DNA of 64,000 nt from an uncultured bacterium (GTDB lineage: Bacteria; Patescibacteriota; Minisyncoccia; UBA6257; 2-01-FULL-56-20), in assembly GCA_963705915.1 (NCBI GenBank), contig OY970126.1, positions 751,893 through 815,892 on the forward strand, written 5' to 3'. Of this stretch, positions 1 to 54,897 are shown piece after piece. Position 1 is the first letter of the stretch. Every line of letters begins with the position of its first letter. A model generated the notes under the pieces. That model was not told the origin of the DNA. It did not search any database and worked only from the letters and a program-made list of their open reading frames with translations. The position numbers and the translations under genes were made by a program.

Positions 1-794
1 CTGATTGGAAACCGGACGCTGTCGTCCACTTTGCGGCCATTTCCGGCGGTATCCAGCTTACGATCGACCATCCCGCAAGCGTGATGCGGGACAATATCAT
101 GATGAATTTTAATATTGTGGAGGCTGCGCGTCTTGCGAATGTGAATAAAGTTGTGATGACGCTCTCTGCGGCTATCTATCCTGCAAAAACACCAGTGCCA
201 ATGAAAGAAGAAGAGATGCACAATGGTTATCCGCACGAGACAAATTACAGCTATGCTTTTGCAAAACGTCTTATTGACCCTATGGCGAAGGCGTATAAAA
301 AAGAATATGGCATGGATGTTGTTGACATCGTTCCAGGCGCGATCATCGGGCCGAAGAGCAATTTTAATCCTGCGAGTTCGACGGCGATACCGGCGCTCAT
401 CCGCCGTTTTTTTGAGAACCGCGAAGGCAATGAACCACTTCTTGTATGGGGTGATGGGTCGCCAGTTCGCCAATTTACCTCGGACGAGGATATGGGAAGA
501 ATTGCCATGTGGTGCGTTGATAATTACGATGATCCACAAATGTTGAACGTGAGTACGTCAGAAGAGACGTCGATCAAAGACGCGGCCTATATGATTGCGG
601 AATTTTTGCATATCGATCCAAGGCGGCTTACATTCGACACGTCCAAACCCGCGGGAACCCATAGCCAAAGTCTCGATAACAGCAAATTCGTTTCGCTGTC
701 ACATTTCAAATACACGCCGGCGCGCGATACGATAAAGAGAACCGTTGATTATTTCGCTGCACATTATCCGGATCAAAATACCTTGCGCTTATGA
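1..794 (+). CDS. GDP-L-fucose synthase family NAD(P)-dependent epimerase/reductase (Fcl-like); 5' end lies outside the window
   Basis: Reading frame is open to position 1; C-terminal 237 aa resemble Fcl (YAFAKR..IPALIRRF..VWGDGSP.RQF..DDM); ATGA overlap with the next gene. Confidence 0.7.
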   Translation, partial: DWKPDAVVHFAAISGGIQLTIDHPASVMRDNIMMNFNIVEAARLANVNKVVMTLSAAIYPAKTPVPMKEEEMHNGYPHETNYSYAFAKRLIDPMAKAYKKEYGMDVVDIVPGAIIGPKSNFNPASSTAIPALIRRFFENREGNEPLLVWGDGSPVRQFTSDEDMGRIAMWCVDNYDDPQMLNVSTSEETSIKDAAYMIAEFLHIDPRRLTFDTSKPAGTHSQSLDNSKFVSLSHFKYTPARDTIKRTVDYFAAHYPDQNTLRL

Positions 795-1762
795 ACTATC
801 GCGAACTCGGCAAGACCGGTATTAAAGTCTCAGAGGTTGGCTTTGGCACGTGGGGAATTGGCGGAGCGACGGCTGACGGGCCTCATTCGTACGGCGACGT
901 TAACGACGCGGAATCAAAAATCGCCCTTGAGCGCGCGTTCGATCTCGGCATTAATTTTTTCGACACATCAAATATTTATGGCTATGGCCATGCCGAAGAA
1001 TTGCTTGGCACGACGTTTAAGGGTCGTCGCGACAAAGTGGTGATCGCGAGTAAAGTTGGATATGTAAAGCACGGCGGCCCGTGGGACCTCTCGCCATCGT
1101 TCATCCGTAAATGTCTTGAAGAGACGCTCAAGCGCCTTCAGTCGGATTACGTCGACCTCTATCAAATCCATAGCCCGCCGATCGAACTTCTTGAACAAAC
1201 GCCGGAGGCCGTCGATGAACTCAAGAAATTAAAACAGGAAGGGAAAATTCGTGCGTTCGGATACTCCGTTAAAAACCCTAAAGAAGGAGAGCTTGTCATC
1301 AACACATACGGATTCCAAACGGTGCAGGTAAATTTTAACATGATTGACCAGCGCGCCTACGACATCGGTCTTTTTGATATTGCCGAGAAGGCCGGCGCGG
1401 GCATCATCGCGCGCACGCCATTTGCATTTGGGTTCCTGACAGGCACCGTCAAAGACATTCATTTCAATCCGAAAGATCACCGCTCGGCATGGCCCGAGCA
1501 TCAGTTGAAAATCTGGATGGAGGCGCCAAGTCTTTTTGCGCCATTGAACGCCGGAACGTCGAGAACGCTTGCAGAACTTGCATTGCAATTTTGTCTTAGC
1601 TTCAAACCGATTTCGTCTGTGATTCCGGGGATCCTCCATCCATCAGAGGCCGACGACAACGCAAAGGCAAGCGGCCTTGTGCCGCTCACGCCAGACGAGC
1701 AAAAAGCGATCATTGATATTTATAAGAGCCACGAATTTTTTGACCGATCCGATAAAAAGTGA
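791..1762 (+). CDS. aldo/keto reductase family oxidoreductase
   Basis: N-terminal GxGTW(G)xGG motif, typical AKR length, conserved Y/K region; co-operonic. Confidence 0.8.
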   Translation: MNYRELGKTGIKVSEVGFGTWGIGGATADGPHSYGDVNDAESKIALERAFDLGINFFDTSNIYGYGHAEELLGTTFKGRRDKVVIASKVGYVKHGGPWDLSPSFIRKCLEETLKRLQSDYVDLYQIHSPPIELLEQTPEAVDELKKLKQEGKIRAFGYSVKNPKEGELVINTYGFQTVQVNFNMIDQRAYDIGLFDIAEKAGAGIIARTPFAFGFLTGTVKDIHFNPKDHRSAWPEHQLKIWMEAPSLFAPLNAGTSRTLAELALQFCLSFKPISSVIPGILHPSEADDNAKASGLVPLTPDEQKAIIDIYKSHEFFDRSDKK

Positions 1763-13832: not shown

Positions 13833-14795
13833 TTACCGCGTTTTGAGGGTTTTCTCAATTCCTTCTGCGAGCGAATAGCGAGGCTTCCAGCCGAGGATTT
13901 TTGACGCGCGGGCATAGCTCATCGAAATGCGTTTCACTTCCCCCGCGCGCACCGGTGTGTACTTTGCTTTGTGAGGGAAGTGGAGTCCCTGTGCGATCGC
14001 CGAATAAATTTGGTCGTCAGACGTCTCGCGGGCTGAGGCGATATTGATGATGGTATTCGTTCCACGGGTGAGACCGAGCACGCTTGCATGGGCAACGTCT
14101 TCAACGTAGACATAGTCGCGCGTCTTCTTTCCATTGCCAAAAATGGTTGGCGTCTTCCCGCGGCGCATGAGGCCTACGAAAATCGGAAAGATGCCGGCAC
14201 CGCCCTGTTCGCGTTGCCGCGGCCCATACACGTTTGCATAACGAAAGATGACATACTCGATGCCGTACGCACCGCAATAATATTCGATCATTTGCTCATC
14301 GACGCGCTTTGAAAGTGCATACGGTGAAAGGGGATTTGGTGGTGTTGATTCTGTGGCAGGTAATTTTTTTGGGTTGCCATAGATTGCGCCGCCAGTCGAC
14401 GAGAAAAGCATTTTCTTTTTTTGCCTGCCCTGCCCGCCACGTCCGCCGCGCGCACTGCGTCCCGCACGGGAGCCGCTCTTTGAAAAGGCGACGATCAAAT
14501 TAAGTGTGCCTGTCACGTTGATCGCAAAGGTCTCTTGGGGTTGCTTCACCGATTCCGTGACGCTGATGAACGCGGCGTGATGGTTTAAGACATCCGGTTT
14601 TTCGGCGGCAAAGATCTTGTCCATCGCGCGGGCGTCCCGGATGTCGGCTTTATAAAATTTTGCGCCAGCGGGAATGTTCGTCCGGCGTCCGGAAGAAAGG
14701 TTGTCGATCACGACCACGCGGTGTCCTTTGCGAACATAGGCTTCCGCCACATGACTTCCGATGAACCCCGCGCCTCCCGTTACGATGATTTTCAT
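13833..14795 (-). CDS. NAD-dependent epimerase/dehydratase (UDP-sugar 4-epimerase-like) with an Arg/Gly-rich insertion
   Basis: MKIIVTGGAGFIGSH Rossmann motif, YxxxK region; start chosen at the Met at 14795 (the ORF-track N-extension overlaps the upstream gene). Confidence 0.75.
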   Translation of the reverse strand: MKIIVTGGAGFIGSHVAEAYVRKGHRVVVIDNLSSGRRTNIPAGAKFYKADIRDARAMDKIFAAEKPDVLNHHAAFISVTESVKQPQETFAINVTGTLNLIVAFSKSGSRAGRSARGGRGGQGRQKKKMLFSSTGGAIYGNPKKLPATESTPPNPLSPYALSKRVDEQMIEYYCGAYGIEYVIFRYANVYGPRQREQGGAGIFPIFVGLMRRGKTPTIFGNGKKTRDYVYVEDVAHASVLGLTRGTNTIINIASARETSDDQIYSAIAQGLHFPHKAKYTPVRAGEVKRISMSYARASKILGWKPRYSLAEGIEKTLKTR

Positions 14796-51535: not shown

Positions 51536-52543
51536 TTAAAGTCGGAAGCCGAACTGCGTCTGGAGGAATTGCAGAAGCTGCTGCGGAGGGAGCGAACCGC
51601 GCCAAATGGTGATCGTCTGGCCTGGACCACCAGGGGTCACGCTCACGCTCGTACTTGTGTTCACGCGCGAACGGCCATAGCCGCCAACACCAACGCCCAC
51701 GCGATGCCATCGCCCGCTGCCGTTGCCCAAGAATCCACGCGTGCCACCTGAGGCCGTTGCAGGGTTCGCCGTGCGCGTGATACTGAAGCTTGCACCATCG
51801 CTCGCAAGCGATGATGGGGAAGCAAGTGCCGCGCCACCCTGCGTGATCATCGTCATCGGTTGGGCGCTTGTCTGGGCAATCGTTTCACTCACGCCGTCAC
51901 GCGTAGCCGATCCGTTCGTGAATGAGATGGTGCCAAAGTTGTCGAGGGGTAGCATGCCAACATTCGCCGTCGGCATTTCTTCGATCCATTCCGCAGATGA
52001 TTCGTCGGAATTATATGAGAGCGACGTCTCATATGTGCCGCCGGTCGTTGTGTCATCAAAAGAAATTTGCCACACGCCTGCCGACGTCTGCGTGAGTGAA
52101 ACGCTTATGGAATCGCCGGCGTGCACCGGGAGCGAAATCGTTTGCATGTCCTGCGGCAAAAGTTCATACCACGCTGCGTAGCTCACGCTGCCGTCGCGAT
52201 TCGTGACCGCTTGCGTGCCTGCCTGGATGAGGCTGTGGCTTGTGACGCCGCCGATGCCGACCCATGTTGCGTCTGCCATCGTGCTGCTTGCACTCGCAAC
52301 GTTAGGAACGGTCCATGTGCCCGAGACGCCAGTGAACGGACCCTGCGTTGAGACATAGCCCGACCAATTGAGCGACGTGTTTGTATTCACTCCGGAATTC
52401 GGTGCGCTTGGCGTGGTCACTACCGGAGTCACCGGTGGCGTCCATTGAAACTGGAAGAACGACGGGAATGGTGCCGCAGATGTTACCAAAGGAATAGCTC
52501 CGGCAATCAATGAGACTACCAGGATTTTTTTGAACGTATTCAT
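51536..52543 (-). CDS. secreted G1-family glutamic peptidase (eqolisin/scytalidoglutamic-peptidase-like)
   Basis: Signal peptide; motifs NWSGYV, TWTVP, ATWVGIGG, IQAGTQ (catalytic Gln region), AAWYELLP, AEWIEE (catalytic Glu region) parallel the SGP/aspergilloglutamic peptidase motifs. Confidence 0.6.
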   Translation of the reverse strand: MNTFKKILVVSLIAGAIPLVTSAAPFPSFFQFQWTPPVTPVVTTPSAPNSGVNTNTSLNWSGYVSTQGPFTGVSGTWTVPNVASASSTMADATWVGIGGVTSHSLIQAGTQAVTNRDGSVSYAAWYELLPQDMQTISLPVHAGDSISVSLTQTSAGVWQISFDDTTTGGTYETSLSYNSDESSAEWIEEMPTANVGMLPLDNFGTISFTNGSATRDGVSETIAQTSAQPMTMITQGGAALASPSSLASDGASFSITRTANPATASGGTRGFLGNGSGRWHRVGVGVGGYGRSRVNTSTSVSVTPGGPGQTITIWRGSLPPQQLLQFLQTQFGFRL

Positions 52544-52619
52544 GATTTGTTATACGCTACAGAGCTGAAATTTGTTTCAAAGTCGGGGTTTTTTTCGTAT
52601 AAAACCACATAGCAAGAAG

Positions 52620-52808
52620 ATGCCAAGAAAATATAGCAAACGATCACAGCAAAAAGTGAAGCGCGCGATGCACGAAATGGAGCGTGGCACGCTGAAGAGT
52701 GGTCATAGCGGGAAAACCGTGCGGAGCCGCAAGCAAGCGATCGCCATCGGCCTTTCCGAAGCGCGCCGTGAAGGCGCGAAGGTGCCGAAAAAAGTTGTGC
52801 ACCATTGA
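52620..52808 (+). CDS. small basic hypothetical protein (62 aa)
   Basis: Start chosen at the internal Met at 52620; Lys/Arg-rich. Confidence 0.35.
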   Translation: MPRKYSKRSQQKVKRAMHEMERGTLKSGHSGKTVRSRKQAIAIGLSEARREGAKVPKKVVHH

Positions 52809-52851
52809 CCGTACGCCGCAACGGGGGAGAATAAATAGAGGAGGAGAGCTA

Positions 52852-53202
52852 ATGGCTGTTAGGCAGAGCAAGCACCATTACATTCCACGATCTCGCGGAG
52901 GTAGCAACGGACCGAACACGACACTGATTCCCCACGGTATCCATACTGCTTGGCACCACCTTTTTTACAATCTGTATCCTTGGGAAATCATGCAAGAAAT
53001 TGCCGCGGACCACTATGATCTCGCGCGTTTGAGTCAGGGCAGACAGGAATCTTGGCGTATGGTTTTTGGCATCAAATCCAAAGAGGCAGCCATCGCATAC
53101 GTTCGCAAGGAGTGGTTCCCACCCGATGACTATCTGCATGAATTCCTAGCAGAGCACCAGCTCACTTTTGAAGATATCTTTTCGACCGCCTGCTCTGTCT
53201 GA
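52852..53202 (+). CDS. HNH-endonuclease-like small protein
   Basis: GGAGGAGAG Shine-Dalgarno; HNH-like motif HHYIPRSRGGSNGPNTTLIPHGIHTAWHH; strong terminator follows. Confidence 0.5.
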   Translation: MAVRQSKHHYIPRSRGGSNGPNTTLIPHGIHTAWHHLFYNLYPWEIMQEIAADHYDLARLSQGRQESWRMVFGIKSKEAAIAYVRKEWFPPDDYLHEFLAEHQLTFEDIFSTACSV

Positions 53203-53211
53203 CCCGTACCT

Positions 53212-53240
53212 GCGCGGACGTCCCAACGTCCGCGCTTTTC
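53212..53240 (+). terminator. rho-independent terminator (GCGCGGACG-TCCCAA-CGTCCGCGC plus TTTTC)
   Basis: Perfect 9-bp GC-rich stem and T-run immediately after the HNH gene. Confidence 0.75.
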
Positions 53241-53303
53241 TAAACATTAAATTTTGATTAAAAGAAGCTTTTATTTTTCTTTGAATATCCTTACGATGAA
53301 AGT

Positions 53304-54287
53304 ATGGATAATGAACGAATTCGTTTTCCCCGCGGTGGACAAAAAAGATTTTTGGATCAGGCAATAGCGCGTGCTTCCGGAGTGGATAAACTCGCGCAAT
53401 TTTTATCGGTTTCATCCCGAACCGTGCGGGATTGGAGACGAGAGAAATTTCTTATGGCTTATGAGGCGGCATCGATAACGGCGTTGATGTACGAACTTGA
53501 GATGCCTGATGGGGTGAGGCGCGAAACGGCTTACTGGAATGTTTCTAACGCTGGCAGAACAGGTGGCCCCGCCTCATATAAGAAGCAAAAAGGAATTATT
53601 GGCGACCCTTTATTGAGAAAGCAGAGATGGCATGAATGGTGGGAGTTAAACAAGCACCGCAGTCATTTTCCATGCCATCAATTGCCTTTCCATGAGCCTG
53701 ACCTATCAGTTCTCTTGGCTGAATTTATAGGTATCATGATGGGGGATGGAGGCATGACTGCCAGACAATTCACAATAAGCCTGCATCATATAGATGATCT
53801 TGCTTACAGTAAATTTGTTACTGCTTTGATTGAGCAGCTTTTTCATATTGCTCCTTCAATTCGCCATATACCAAAAAATTCAGTGAATATAATAGTAGTT
53901 TCTCGAACGAAATTAATGCATTATTTGCATGGACTTGGATTGCCTCTTGGGAATAAAGTAAAACAAAATTTTACTATTCCCCAGTGGATACAAGAGAACG
54001 AAGAATTTATGGCTGGGTGCGTCCGTGGGCTCGTCGATACCGATGGAAGTATTTTCAATCATGAATATGCGTCGAATGGAAAGCAGTATTCATATAAGAA
54101 GCTTTCATTTTCATCCGCATCGCTGCCACTTCGAGAGGTCGTACAACTGTTTCTAGAAAATCATGGTTTTCATGCGCGTTTTACACGAGGTATAGAAATT
54201 CGTCTTGAAAGCAAAAAGGATATGGAACACTATATGAAGTTCATTGGCTCACATAATCCAAAGCACTTGAACAGATATTATAACTAG
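53304..54287 (+). CDS. free-standing double-motif LAGLIDADG homing endonuclease with N-terminal HTH region
   Basis: Two LAGLIDADG motifs (LAEFIGIMMGDGG and MAGCVRGLVDTDGS); 327 aa; lower-GC codon usage. Confidence 0.8.
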   Translation: MDNERIRFPRGGQKRFLDQAIARASGVDKLAQFLSVSSRTVRDWRREKFLMAYEAASITALMYELEMPDGVRRETAYWNVSNAGRTGGPASYKKQKGIIGDPLLRKQRWHEWWELNKHRSHFPCHQLPFHEPDLSVLLAEFIGIMMGDGGMTARQFTISLHHIDDLAYSKFVTALIEQLFHIAPSIRHIPKNSVNIIVVSRTKLMHYLHGLGLPLGNKVKQNFTIPQWIQENEEFMAGCVRGLVDTDGSIFNHEYASNGKQYSYKKLSFSSASLPLREVVQLFLENHGFHARFTRGIEIRLESKKDMEHYMKFIGSHNPKHLNRYYN

Positions 54288-54316
54288 GTTATCTTATGTG
54301 GGATGGTATAAAATTG

Positions 54317-54403
54317 GGAGACGTGGGTGAGTGGCTTAAACCAAATTCCTGCTAAGAATTTAGGGGAGAAATCCCCTCGAAGGTTCGAATCCTTCCGTCT
54401 CCG
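54317..54403 (+). tRNA. tRNA-Ser (anticodon GCU), class II
   Basis: Acceptor GGAGACG/CGTCTCC, anticodon stem AATTC/GAATT with loop CTGCTAA, long variable arm, T-arm GAAGG-TTCGAAT-CCTTC. Confidence 0.85.
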
Positions 54404-54411
54404 CCCGATAT

Positions 54412-54897
54412 TTATGTGCTTGCCAAATACTTCTCAAGCTTATCGAACTGTTGATTGAATCCCATCTCCATGCCCTCTATTGCCATTTTGGCATCGGGTC
54501 CGATTTTATTCACCGTGATTTTTAATGCCATTTTAGTCTTGCCGTTCTCTTCCGTGAAGGCGATGTCTTGCACCTGATCGATCTTGGTAGTTTTCTCCGC
54601 GCCTTCGGTCCAGGCTTTTACGGCATAGGAAAGTTTTGCATGTGGCTCTACCGCGGTGAACGTCCCTTCCATCGGCCACCGTGTACCTTTATATTGGCCC
54701 ATCCCTTCGCCGGCTTCCATGACGATGTAAATTCTTCCGCCCACGCGGAGGTCTACTTCGCACTCCGGGATGCTCACATTGTTCGGTCCCCACCACTTCT
54801 TGAGTTCGGACGGATCTGTCCATGCTTTCCACACGCGCTCCGGCTTGGCGTTTAGGACTCGCGAGAACGTAACTTCTTTTTTGTTTTCTGTAGCCAT
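54412..54897 (-). CDS. SRPBCC-superfamily protein (Aha1/activator-of-Hsp90-ATPase-like)
   Basis: 161 aa; F.RV..A..E.VW.AWTDP..L..WWGP pattern typical of the AHSA1 domain. Confidence 0.7.
   Translation of the reverse strand: MATENKKEVTFSRVLNAKPERVWKAWTDPSELKKWWGPNNVSIPECEVDLRVGGRIYIVMEAGEGMGQYKGTRWPMEGTFTAVEPHAKLSYAVKAWTEGAEKTTKIDQVQDIAFTEENGKTKMALKITVNKIGPDAKMAIEGMEMGFNQQFDKLEKYLAST

Follow-up and report, generated by a model that had tools for sequence, protein, structure and literature searches.

The DNA analyzed here is a window of 64,000 nucleotides (nt) from contig OY970126.1 of an uncultured member of the Patescibacteriota (Minisyncoccia). Our subject is a gene in this window that encodes a 327-amino-acid (aa) protein with two LAGLIDADG motifs and an N-terminal helix-turn-helix (HTH), and that stands immediately 5' of the gene for tRNA-Ser(GCU). 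The features of this unit, with the type of evidence for each in parentheses, are as follows.

53304..54287, plus strand: open reading frame (ORF) of the free-standing 327-aa HTH and double-LAGLIDADG protein, a Parcubacteria-wide family (ORF, Pfam, homologues, structural model)
53352..53453, plus strand: N-terminal HTH, aa ~17-50, with conserved RTVRDWRREKF (weak profile matches, helices of the model)
53709..53750, plus strand: LAGLIDADG motif 1, LAEFIGIMMGDGG, aa 136-149, with predicted catalytic residue D148 (helix 136-148 of the model)
54000..54047, plus strand: LAGLIDADG motif 2, MAGCVRGLVDTDGS, aa 233-248, with predicted catalytic residue D247 (helix 233-247 of the model)
54267..54295, plus strand: putative tRNA-Ser(GCU) promoter across the end of the ORF (sequence read, layout recurring among loci)
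54317..54405, plus strand: tRNA-Ser(GCU), the constant downstream partner of the family (ARAGORN; Rfam tRNA, 55.7 bits)

The stop codon of the LAGLIDADG gene and the first base of tRNA-Ser(GCU) are separated by 29 nt. The tRNA gene is uninterrupted and complete, and the flanking sequences hold separate, complete genes. Rfam was searched at the gathering threshold over the whole window and at an expect value (E) of ≤ 1 over positions 52400-54600, and the tRNA alone was matched, with no group I intron and no other RNA family. Because nothing besides the tRNA was found, the gene is free-standing, as had been proposed in an earlier, sequence-only reading of this DNA; neither intein nor Hint sequences accompany it, and its reading frame is not joined to that of a host gene. 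No integrase, repeats or phage relatives were found alongside it. The guanine-plus-cytosine (GC) content of the gene is 0.38-0.47 versus 0.50-0.57 in the flanks, which agrees with the lower local GC described in that reading but not with its use as a sign of recent insertion. In 73 of the 75 loci in which the two were compared, the GC of the gene was below that of its flanks, by a mean of 6.3 points, and it tracked the GC of the host (r = 0.88). Low GC is therefore a trait of the family and does not mark a recent insertion in the window.

The assignment of this protein to the LAGLIDADG enzymes was examined by profile search and structure prediction. Pfam PF14528 (LAGLIDADG_3) matched at 28.6 bits compared to a gathering score of 22.5, with coverage of domain 2 only; domain 1 matched only LAGLIDADG_2, at 14.4 bits, which is under its cut-off. 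Weak matches were obtained to HTH_17, YdaS and carph-isopro, those to HTH_17 and YdaS at aa 17-50, and to NCBIfam intein-region profiles. An AlphaFold model built on 27 relatives (predicted local distance difference test score, pLDDT, of 89) predicted two alpha-beta-beta-alpha-beta-beta-alpha units preceded by a helical domain at the N terminus, and the HTH region was modelled as helices H12-24, H27-34 and H38-45 with pLDDT > 90. The model had 124 PDB matches at E ≤ 0.001, and the top matches were all LAGLIDADG enzymes (I-Tsp061I, intein endonucleases, I-DmoI, the bI3 maturase and I-AniI). The best was I-Tsp061I, with an E of 3.8e-11 and a template modelling (TM) score of 0.77 on the target, and identity to the archaeal-intron and intein enzymes was 16-20%; WhiA (8dy9_I) was also among the structural matches, at rank 45. 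D148 and D247 close the two LAGLIDADG helices of the model, and both were invariant in 81 of 81 sequences, as were E140, G143, G147 and G149 in motif 1, R241, G242, D245, T246 and G248 in motif 2, and K218 and W44 elsewhere in the protein. R39 and K48 were nearly so. By motif, profile and predicted fold, the protein is of the two-domain monomeric LAGLIDADG type, with cleavage activity predicted.

More than 600 homologues of approximately 330 aa were found that match over their full length at 40-61% identity, and their named sources are lineages of the Parcubacteria group. A relative is encoded in at least 537 GTDB species genomes (one genome per species), nearly all of which are labelled Parcubacteria or Paceibacteria. 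The genome loci analyzed were the best-scoring 80 of these 537 stretches. Their record titles name Kaiser-, Yanofsky-, Nealson-, Moran-, Staskawicz-, Sungii-, Lipton-, Harrison-, Yonath- and Nomurabacteria, Paceibacterota and Minisyncoccia, and a few name other taxa, the labels being given here as recorded. Each match was extended to its stop codon before the distance to the tRNA was measured. In 74 of the 77 informative loci, ARAGORN placed tRNA-Ser(GCU) downstream on the same strand, which gives meaning to the placement beside this tRNA that had been pointed out from the window alone. The spacer from stop codon to tRNA was 0-42 nt, mostly 7-8 or 16-23 nt, and in one locus (L069) the last 15 nt of the ORF lie within the tRNA. 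Two loci were uninformative since the contig stops at the gene (L007 and L072), and in L014 the contig stops within a visible tRNA-Ser(GCU). There were three exceptions. In two of the 77 (L056 and L078) the ORF runs into tRNA-Ser(UGA), and in one (L075) no tRNA adjoins the gene and tRNA-Ser(GCU) lies approximately 1 kb away on the other strand.

The genes 5' of the unit are host core genes that vary by subclade, namely a ComFC-like gene, a divergent tRNA-Arg(GCG) with RecG, or a divergent IF-2 gene, and the gene-tRNA pair flips relative to a nearby tRNA-Cys/tRNA-Leu(UAA) pair between lineages. The gene-tRNA pair alone stays constant and was kept together through these rearrangements. Within a low-GC metagenome contig (L206, positions 624-1364, minus strand), a member of a second LAGLIDADG subfamily, with 33% identity and a Cys-rich, zinc-ribbon-like N terminus replacing the HTH, lies divergently, 74 nt from a tRNA-Ser(GCU)-tRNA-Ser(UGA) pair. 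The presence of a second subfamily in the opposite orientation at the same tRNA points to site targeting and away from a single ancient fusion. Among the phage contigs of IMG/VR no family member was found, only distant LAGLIDADG domains with 24-29% identity. The commonest 5' neighbour was a ComFC-like competence protein gene, 40 nt upstream on the same strand in 27 of the 80 loci (e.g., L069:3245-3910 and L080:3156-3944), and PilM, PilN and PilO genes are found near loci of this type; the position of DNA-uptake genes beside a putative homing gene may be coincidence.

What the sequence-only reading missed is the main feature of the locus, a putative tRNA promoter embedded in the last codons of the ORF. 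When the 75 nt 5' of each tRNA were aligned on the tRNA start, a recurring layout was seen that consists of a TTGAAA, TTGAGA or TTGAAG hexamer, a 16-18 nt spacer and a TAnnnT hexamer, usually followed by 8-12 nt to the +1 position of the tRNA. The -35-like hexamer is made up of the codons for a Leu and the next residue in the conserved C terminus ..S-H-N-P-K-H-L-K-R-Y, and the stop codon falls in or just before the -10-like hexamer. At this site the Leu codon was TTG in 55 of 65 sequences (85%), compared to 17% of the 2,166 Leu codons elsewhere in these ORFs, and a 12-point promoter score was at least 9 in 55% of loci versus 5.5% of shuffled upstream sequences. The three loci with exceptional tRNA arrangements differ at this position. 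Where the tRNA is relocated (L075), the Leu codon is TTA and the tRNA has a TTGACT-17-TAGAAT promoter of its own, and where the ORF runs into tRNA-Ser(UGA) (L056 and L078), Leu is replaced by Lys or Arg. In the window, the element has a -35 hexamer TTGAAC at 54267-54272 (codons L-N of ...KHLNRY), a 17-nt spacer with the TAG stop codon (54285-54287) inside it, and a -10 hexamer TATCTT at 54290-54295. It scores 8/12, its -10 hexamer lies 21 nt from the tRNA versus the usual 8-12 nt, and the consensus scan did not list it; because of the 8/12 match and the long distance, the promoter assignment in the window is tentative. We infer that the same bases encode the C terminus of the protein and serve as the promoter of tRNA-Ser(GCU). 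A promoter inside the end of the ORF would leave the tRNA its own promoter despite the insertion, and because of this overlap the insertion would be harmless and the gene and the tRNA would never separate.

Metagenome contigs of the Joint Genome Institute (JGI) were scanned with a pattern for the tRNA only (one tRNA-Ser(GCU) D-arm type), so as not to condition on the presence of the gene. Most of the 120 loci obtained came from other, high-GC phyla, and about a dozen were assignable to Parcubacteria by the similarity of their flanking genes. The presence/absence polymorphism that the sequence-only reading had named as the mark of a homing site was found at the exact position in related genomes. 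One locus without the gene (L161) is colinear with a gene-bearing locus (L024), with 84% nt identity over 1,656 nt from RecG through tRNA-Arg(GCG) and again through ComFC and PilM, and their RecG and PilM proteins have 85% and 87% aa identity, respectively. Between tRNA-Arg and tRNA-Ser(GCU) there are 79 nt in L161 versus a 1-kb gene in L024. Homology between the left spacers of L161 and L024 extends to a few nt before the -35 hexamer TTGACT of L161, and a canonical TTGACT-17-TAAAAT promoter precedes the tRNA. Further empty sites with the same synteny are L103 (RecG, 123 nt, tRNA), L098 (PilM, ComFC, 155 nt, tRNA), L126, L158 and L093, and a relaxed tblastn search for gene relics in the empty sites gave nothing below an E of 0.03. 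The tRNA-Ser(GCU) of one empty locus (L098) does not differ at all (100% identity) from that of a gene-bearing locus (L037), so a target of the enzyme cannot lie in the tRNA alone and must include upstream sequence that is split by the insertion. The same metagenome sample also has loci that carry the gene, namely L112 (identical to L069) and L202, where an in-frame TAA in motif 1 indicates either a pseudogene or a sequencing error.

The ratio of nonsynonymous to synonymous substitution rates (dN/dS) of the LAGLIDADG gene was 0.09-0.18 in the closest pairs, with dS near saturation, compared to 0.08-0.18 for RecG and 0.05-0.15 for PilM from the same loci. These estimates show that purifying selection on the LAGLIDADG ORF is as strong as that on RecG. 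The mean pairwise identity of the LAGLIDADG proteins was 0.50, equal to that of RecG, and in the pair L041/L053 the dS of the gene was 0.87 versus 0.93 for RecG. The relation between LAGLIDADG and RecG identities was monotonic, and the largest discrepancies were -0.25 and +0.20. At this resolution, the identities indicate that inheritance has been mostly vertical.

Our leading interpretation, for which we judge the case to be about evenly balanced, is that the gene encodes an old, probably still-active, free-standing LAGLIDADG homing endonuclease resident at the tRNA-Ser(GCU) promoter. Such an enzyme would cut the uninterrupted tRNA-Ser(GCU) promoter and leader in genomes without the gene, and repair from a gene-carrying copy, for example after DNA uptake, would install the gene just 5' of the -35 box, where it would split the recognition site. 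The overlap with the promoter would make insertion harmless and partial deletions costly, and a slow cycle of gain, decay and loss combined with long stretches of vertical inheritance would account for persistence. The features seen here are those expected from the life cycle of a homing endonuclease: one address throughout the family, catalytic residues kept intact, strong purifying selection, patchy presence with clean empty sites among close relatives, a pseudogene now and then, and a second subfamily at the same tRNA.

Several points weigh against this interpretation. Both the cleavage and the target site of the enzyme are predictions. ORFs were full length in all 78 loci not cut by contig ends, a count that comes from a sample which favours intact copies, since the best 80 of 537 were analyzed. 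LAGLIDADG identity was correlated with host identity across loci, with Spearman coefficients of 0.64 for RecG, 0.52 for PilM and 0.51 for ComFC (overall 0.50-0.64); host-host coefficients of 0.69-0.84 were modestly above these, and on a common set of 11 taxa the two were equal. The pairwise identities gave no clear sign of horizontal transfer, the top excess over RecG being +0.20, and the identity data suit long vertical inheritance of a host-useful gene equally well. The prevalence of the gene is a rough estimate, made from a single D-arm type of the tRNA and from the dozen or so metagenome loci that could be assigned, and the empty sites could be precise losses rather than sites never invaded. 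Since the sequence 5' of the tRNA also shows little conservation between orders, transfer by way of a homing site in it would be confined to fairly close relatives.

The main rival, a possible alternative to which we give tentative weight, is that the LAGLIDADG protein has been domesticated and serves the host in some role at the tRNA-Ser(GCU) locus. An early ancestor of the Parcubacteria would already have had the gene, which would then have been passed on vertically, with losses in some lineages. Candidate host roles are those of a DNA-binding regulator of the overlapping tRNA promoter, similar to WhiA, or of a site-specific nuclease of the cell, similar to HO. Vertical inheritance, GC amelioration to the host, selection as strong as that on RecG and PilM, and the lack of detected transfer suit domestication and homing equally well. 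Domestication is also in keeping with the mean identity equal to that of RecG, a divergence that tracks host genes, the nearly matching dS values of L041 and L053, the conserved N-terminal HTH, the presence of WhiA among the structural matches, and a 5' side that adjoins core genes with no genes of mobile elements. Conversely, both catalytic Asp residues are invariant, unlike those of WhiA-type derivatives; the distribution is patchy, with several close relatives of the same synteny cleanly lacking the gene and one copy a putative pseudogene; a different LAGLIDADG subfamily occupies the same tRNA in the opposite orientation; and the GC of the gene has stayed under that of host genes at nearly every locus compared. 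An unlikely variant takes the protein to be a domesticated, still-catalytic nuclease that works in cis at the tRNA-Ser(GCU) locus as a bacterial counterpart of HO. Such a nuclease might control the overlapping promoter, or might make a programmed break that drives recombination or polices the serine-recombinase integration hot spot described below.

It is very unlikely that the protein is inert and that the ORF is retained purely because its 3' end is an undeletable tRNA-Ser(GCU) promoter. The -35 box in the end of the ORF and the strong constraint on synonymous codons there speak for such lock-in. It would shield only the last ~40 nt, however, and the low dN/dS across the whole 327-aa ORF argues strongly against it, as do the invariance of catalytic and many other residues over 81 sequences, the full-length ORFs in every complete locus, and the clean empty sites, in which the gene is absent while the tRNA retains its promoter.

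The sequence-only reading had instead proposed a small mobile insertion, or a pair of nucleases formed with the gene upstream; what it observed is confirmed, and its interpretation is supported in part. The features concerned are as follows.

52840-52846, plus strand: Shine-Dalgarno sequence GGAGGAG, 5 nt 5' of the 116-aa ORF (sequence read)
52852..53202, plus strand: HNH-motif gene, 116 aa, of an uncharacterised family; a neighbour, outside the conserved unit (ORF list, family profile)
53212..53241, plus strand: intrinsic-terminator-like hairpin and T-run between the HNH-like and LAGLIDADG genes

That this gene has a Shine-Dalgarno sequence and a terminator of its own was borne out. The terminator hairpin (53212-53235) has 10 pairs, 8 of them GC, with the tail TTTTCT, and an AT-rich spacer of about 60 nt follows, the 327-aa ORF starting 68 nt after the terminator. 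The 116-aa protein had no match in Pfam (even at E ≤ 10), NCBIfam, PHROG or PDB, and a word-indexed protein search returned itself alone. In an exhaustive HMMER search 165 relatives were obtained, of which eight had an E of ≤ 1e-10, and the family alignment conserves an HHxIPRSRGG..N..H.AWH.LF.N..P.E core and a second block, W..LFG...EA...W.P. The window protein carries HHYIPRSRGG..N..H..WHH, and H8, H9, N22, H31 and H35 were invariant or nearly so in 27 relatives, of which 10 matched Pfam HNH (PF01844) weakly (best E 4.7e-5). The family profile matched HNH motifs of McrA, Cas8f-HNH, IscB, a group II intron maturase and colicins in the PDB with E of 0.004-0.07. These alignments indicate that the HNH-like motif is real at the level of the family, which is an uncharacterised family of small proteins with predicted nuclease activity. 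The 116-aa start is favoured over the recorded 70-aa gene call because the N terminus is conserved. The C-terminal half, with the second block, had weak profile matches (E 0.002-0.04) to MbtH-like proteins, which are adaptors of nonribosomal peptide synthetases.

When the HNH family profile was compared to six-frame translations of the 80 genome loci, the 120 metagenome loci and the whole window, the window copy was the only one found, and two relatives from the HNH family sit alone among housekeeping genes. The HNH-motif gene is an unrelated, unlinked neighbour of the LAGLIDADG gene, and the proposed nuclease pair is not supported, the two genes being adjacent in this window only. We therefore regard a recent small mobile island or a cooperating LAGLIDADG and HNH pair as highly improbable and largely refuted. 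It is true that the two nuclease-type genes are adjacent on the same strand in a region of low GC, and the HNH-like gene, unique to the locus of this genome, may itself be a recent arrival. Against this stand the strong terminator between the genes, the absence of integrase, repeats and phage relatives, the low GC as a family trait, and the age of the LAGLIDADG-tRNA unit, which hundreds of Parcubacteria species share and which has evolved under purifying selection and, for the most part, in step with the host. We assign next to no probability to the idea that the endonuclease belongs to an intron or intein that interrupts a host gene, an origin suggested by the nearest relatives in sequence and structure and refuted, at the sensitivity of the tools used, by the continuous tRNA, the lack of any Rfam intron, and a gene that has an HTH rather than a Hint domain or extein at its N terminus and forms its own terminator-bounded unit.

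The closest structural relatives of the protein, the archaeal intron enzymes I-Tsp061I and I-DmoI and the intein enzymes TliVMA, PI-PfuI and VDE, share its two-domain, one-chain fold and the acidic residue that ends each LAGLIDADG helix. Unlike them, the window gene is free-standing in a bacterial chromosome and its product has an extra N-terminal domain of ~130 aa with an HTH. WhiA is a LAGLIDADG-derived bacterial transcription factor that has lost the catalytic acidic residues and has its HTH at the C terminus. Both are bacterial chromosomal proteins with a two-domain LAGLIDADG scaffold and an HTH, but the window family keeps both Asp residues, has an N-terminal HTH and is patchy in its presence. 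SegB of phage T4 is a free-standing endonuclease in a tRNA gene region that is co-inherited with the neighbouring tRNA genes; it is a GIY-YIG enzyme of a lytic phage and spreads at co-infection. It resembles the window gene in sitting between functional units and in needing no splicing element, and differs in that the window family is LAGLIDADG, resides in the cellular chromosomes of a class-level clade without phage copies in IMG/VR, and overlaps a tRNA promoter. SegB is mentioned in PMC13096335.

The WHO and HO genes of yeasts combine an intein-type LAGLIDADG nuclease with an extra DNA-binding domain; they are free-standing, involve no splicing and always lie beside one conserved host gene (PMC7282813). 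HO shows that elements of the WHO type can become domesticated (Coughlan et al. 2020, PMC7282813). WHO elements swap the 3' end of a protein gene for a resistant copy and build pseudogene clusters (PMC7282813). The window family differs in being bacterial, and no tandem relic clusters were seen at the empty sites examined. A resistant or foreign tRNA allele, as in WHO, was considered and dropped: tRNA-Ser(GCU) of L161 (empty) and L024 (filled) differs by 35%, and the neighbouring tRNA-Arg and tRNA-Ser(UGA) differ to a like extent (31-40%), so the signal is not specific to this tRNA. Such an allele also does not fit the identical tRNAs of L098 (empty) and L037 (filled), from which it follows that protection would come from a split site and not, unlike in WHO, from a resistant allele. 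In bacteria of the candidate phyla radiation (CPR), the LAGLIDADG enzymes of rRNA insertions lie mostly in group-I-like introns and are mainly single-domain homodimers, as reported by Tsurumaki et al. (2024, PMC11270868). Among them, I-ShaI was shown there to cut its own insertion site (PMC11270868). The window family belongs to the same enzyme superfamily and the same bacterial radiation, but has two domains and an HTH and lies outside any gene, at a tRNA promoter; PMC11270868 makes no mention of tRNA.

The gene-tRNA arrangement is apparently undescribed, and it is long-lived for a putative selfish gene; in the literature searched, coverage of which was incomplete, no CPR bacterium was found to be described with a LAGLIDADG gene linked to tRNA-Ser, an absence that is no proof. 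LAGLIDADG genes that stand alone in bacterial chromosomes usually receive an annotation and no further attention. This family offers one fixed address over at least 537 species, a testable target prediction (the uninterrupted tRNA-Ser(GCU) promoter and leader) and natural filled and empty alleles, and the dual-coding ORF end and tRNA promoter would explain how a selfish gene can be harmless in front of a tRNA gene. If the homing interpretation is true, the family would give the first indication that homing at tRNA promoters occurs in cellular genomes, would point indirectly to a frequent exchange of DNA between uncultured ultrasmall bacteria, and would provide hundreds of natural variants of a new monomeric meganuclease scaffold that is extended by an HTH. 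If domestication is true, the family would be an example, rare among bacteria, of a host that has put a catalytic homing endonuclease to its own use.

Other observations were made at the tRNA genes of these loci. In at least 9 of the 80 loci (L020, L025, L026, L037, L046, L051, L030, L073 and L076), and likewise in L103 and L110, the 3' end of tRNA-Ser(GCU) directly adjoins a gene for a large serine recombinase that is encoded on the opposite strand, and 18 of the 80 contigs stop within 500 nt after the LAGLIDADG stop codon. With the LAGLIDADG gene or without it, mobile elements in Parcubacteria appear to use this 3' end as an integration hot spot. A well-formed tRNA-Ser with the anticodon ACU (A34) was found in two Yanofskybacteria and one Kaiserbacteria locus (L012:3832-3921, L015:891-977 and L068:3816-3906, all on the minus strand), divergent from the LAGLIDADG gene and 67-119 nt 5' of it, with a normal tRNA-Ser(GCU) also there. 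These copies are not recent duplicates of the GCU gene, and a serine tRNA with A34 is unusual in bacteria. Between L161:1585-1940 and L024:3818-6142, from genomes with 85% identical RecG proteins, the identity of tRNAs in orthologous positions was 69% for Arg-GCG, 65% for Ser-GCU and 60% for Ser-UGA, with stem changes that look compensatory, which suggests unusually fast evolution or replacement of tRNA genes in these lineages.

In the window itself, the genes 5' of the HNH-motif gene encode a small basic DUF6496 protein (52572-52808, plus strand) and a Peptidase_A4 family protein (51536-52543, minus strand). Downstream, on the minus strand, lies the gene for a protein of the AHSA1/SRPBCC fold, the stop codon of which is 7 nt from the 3' end of the tRNA. 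On a 15-kb groundwater contig without the LAGLIDADG gene (L097, approximately positions 14,690-14,780 as oriented on the tRNA), a degenerate tRNA-Ser(GCU)-like copy stands in tandem just 5' of the intact one.

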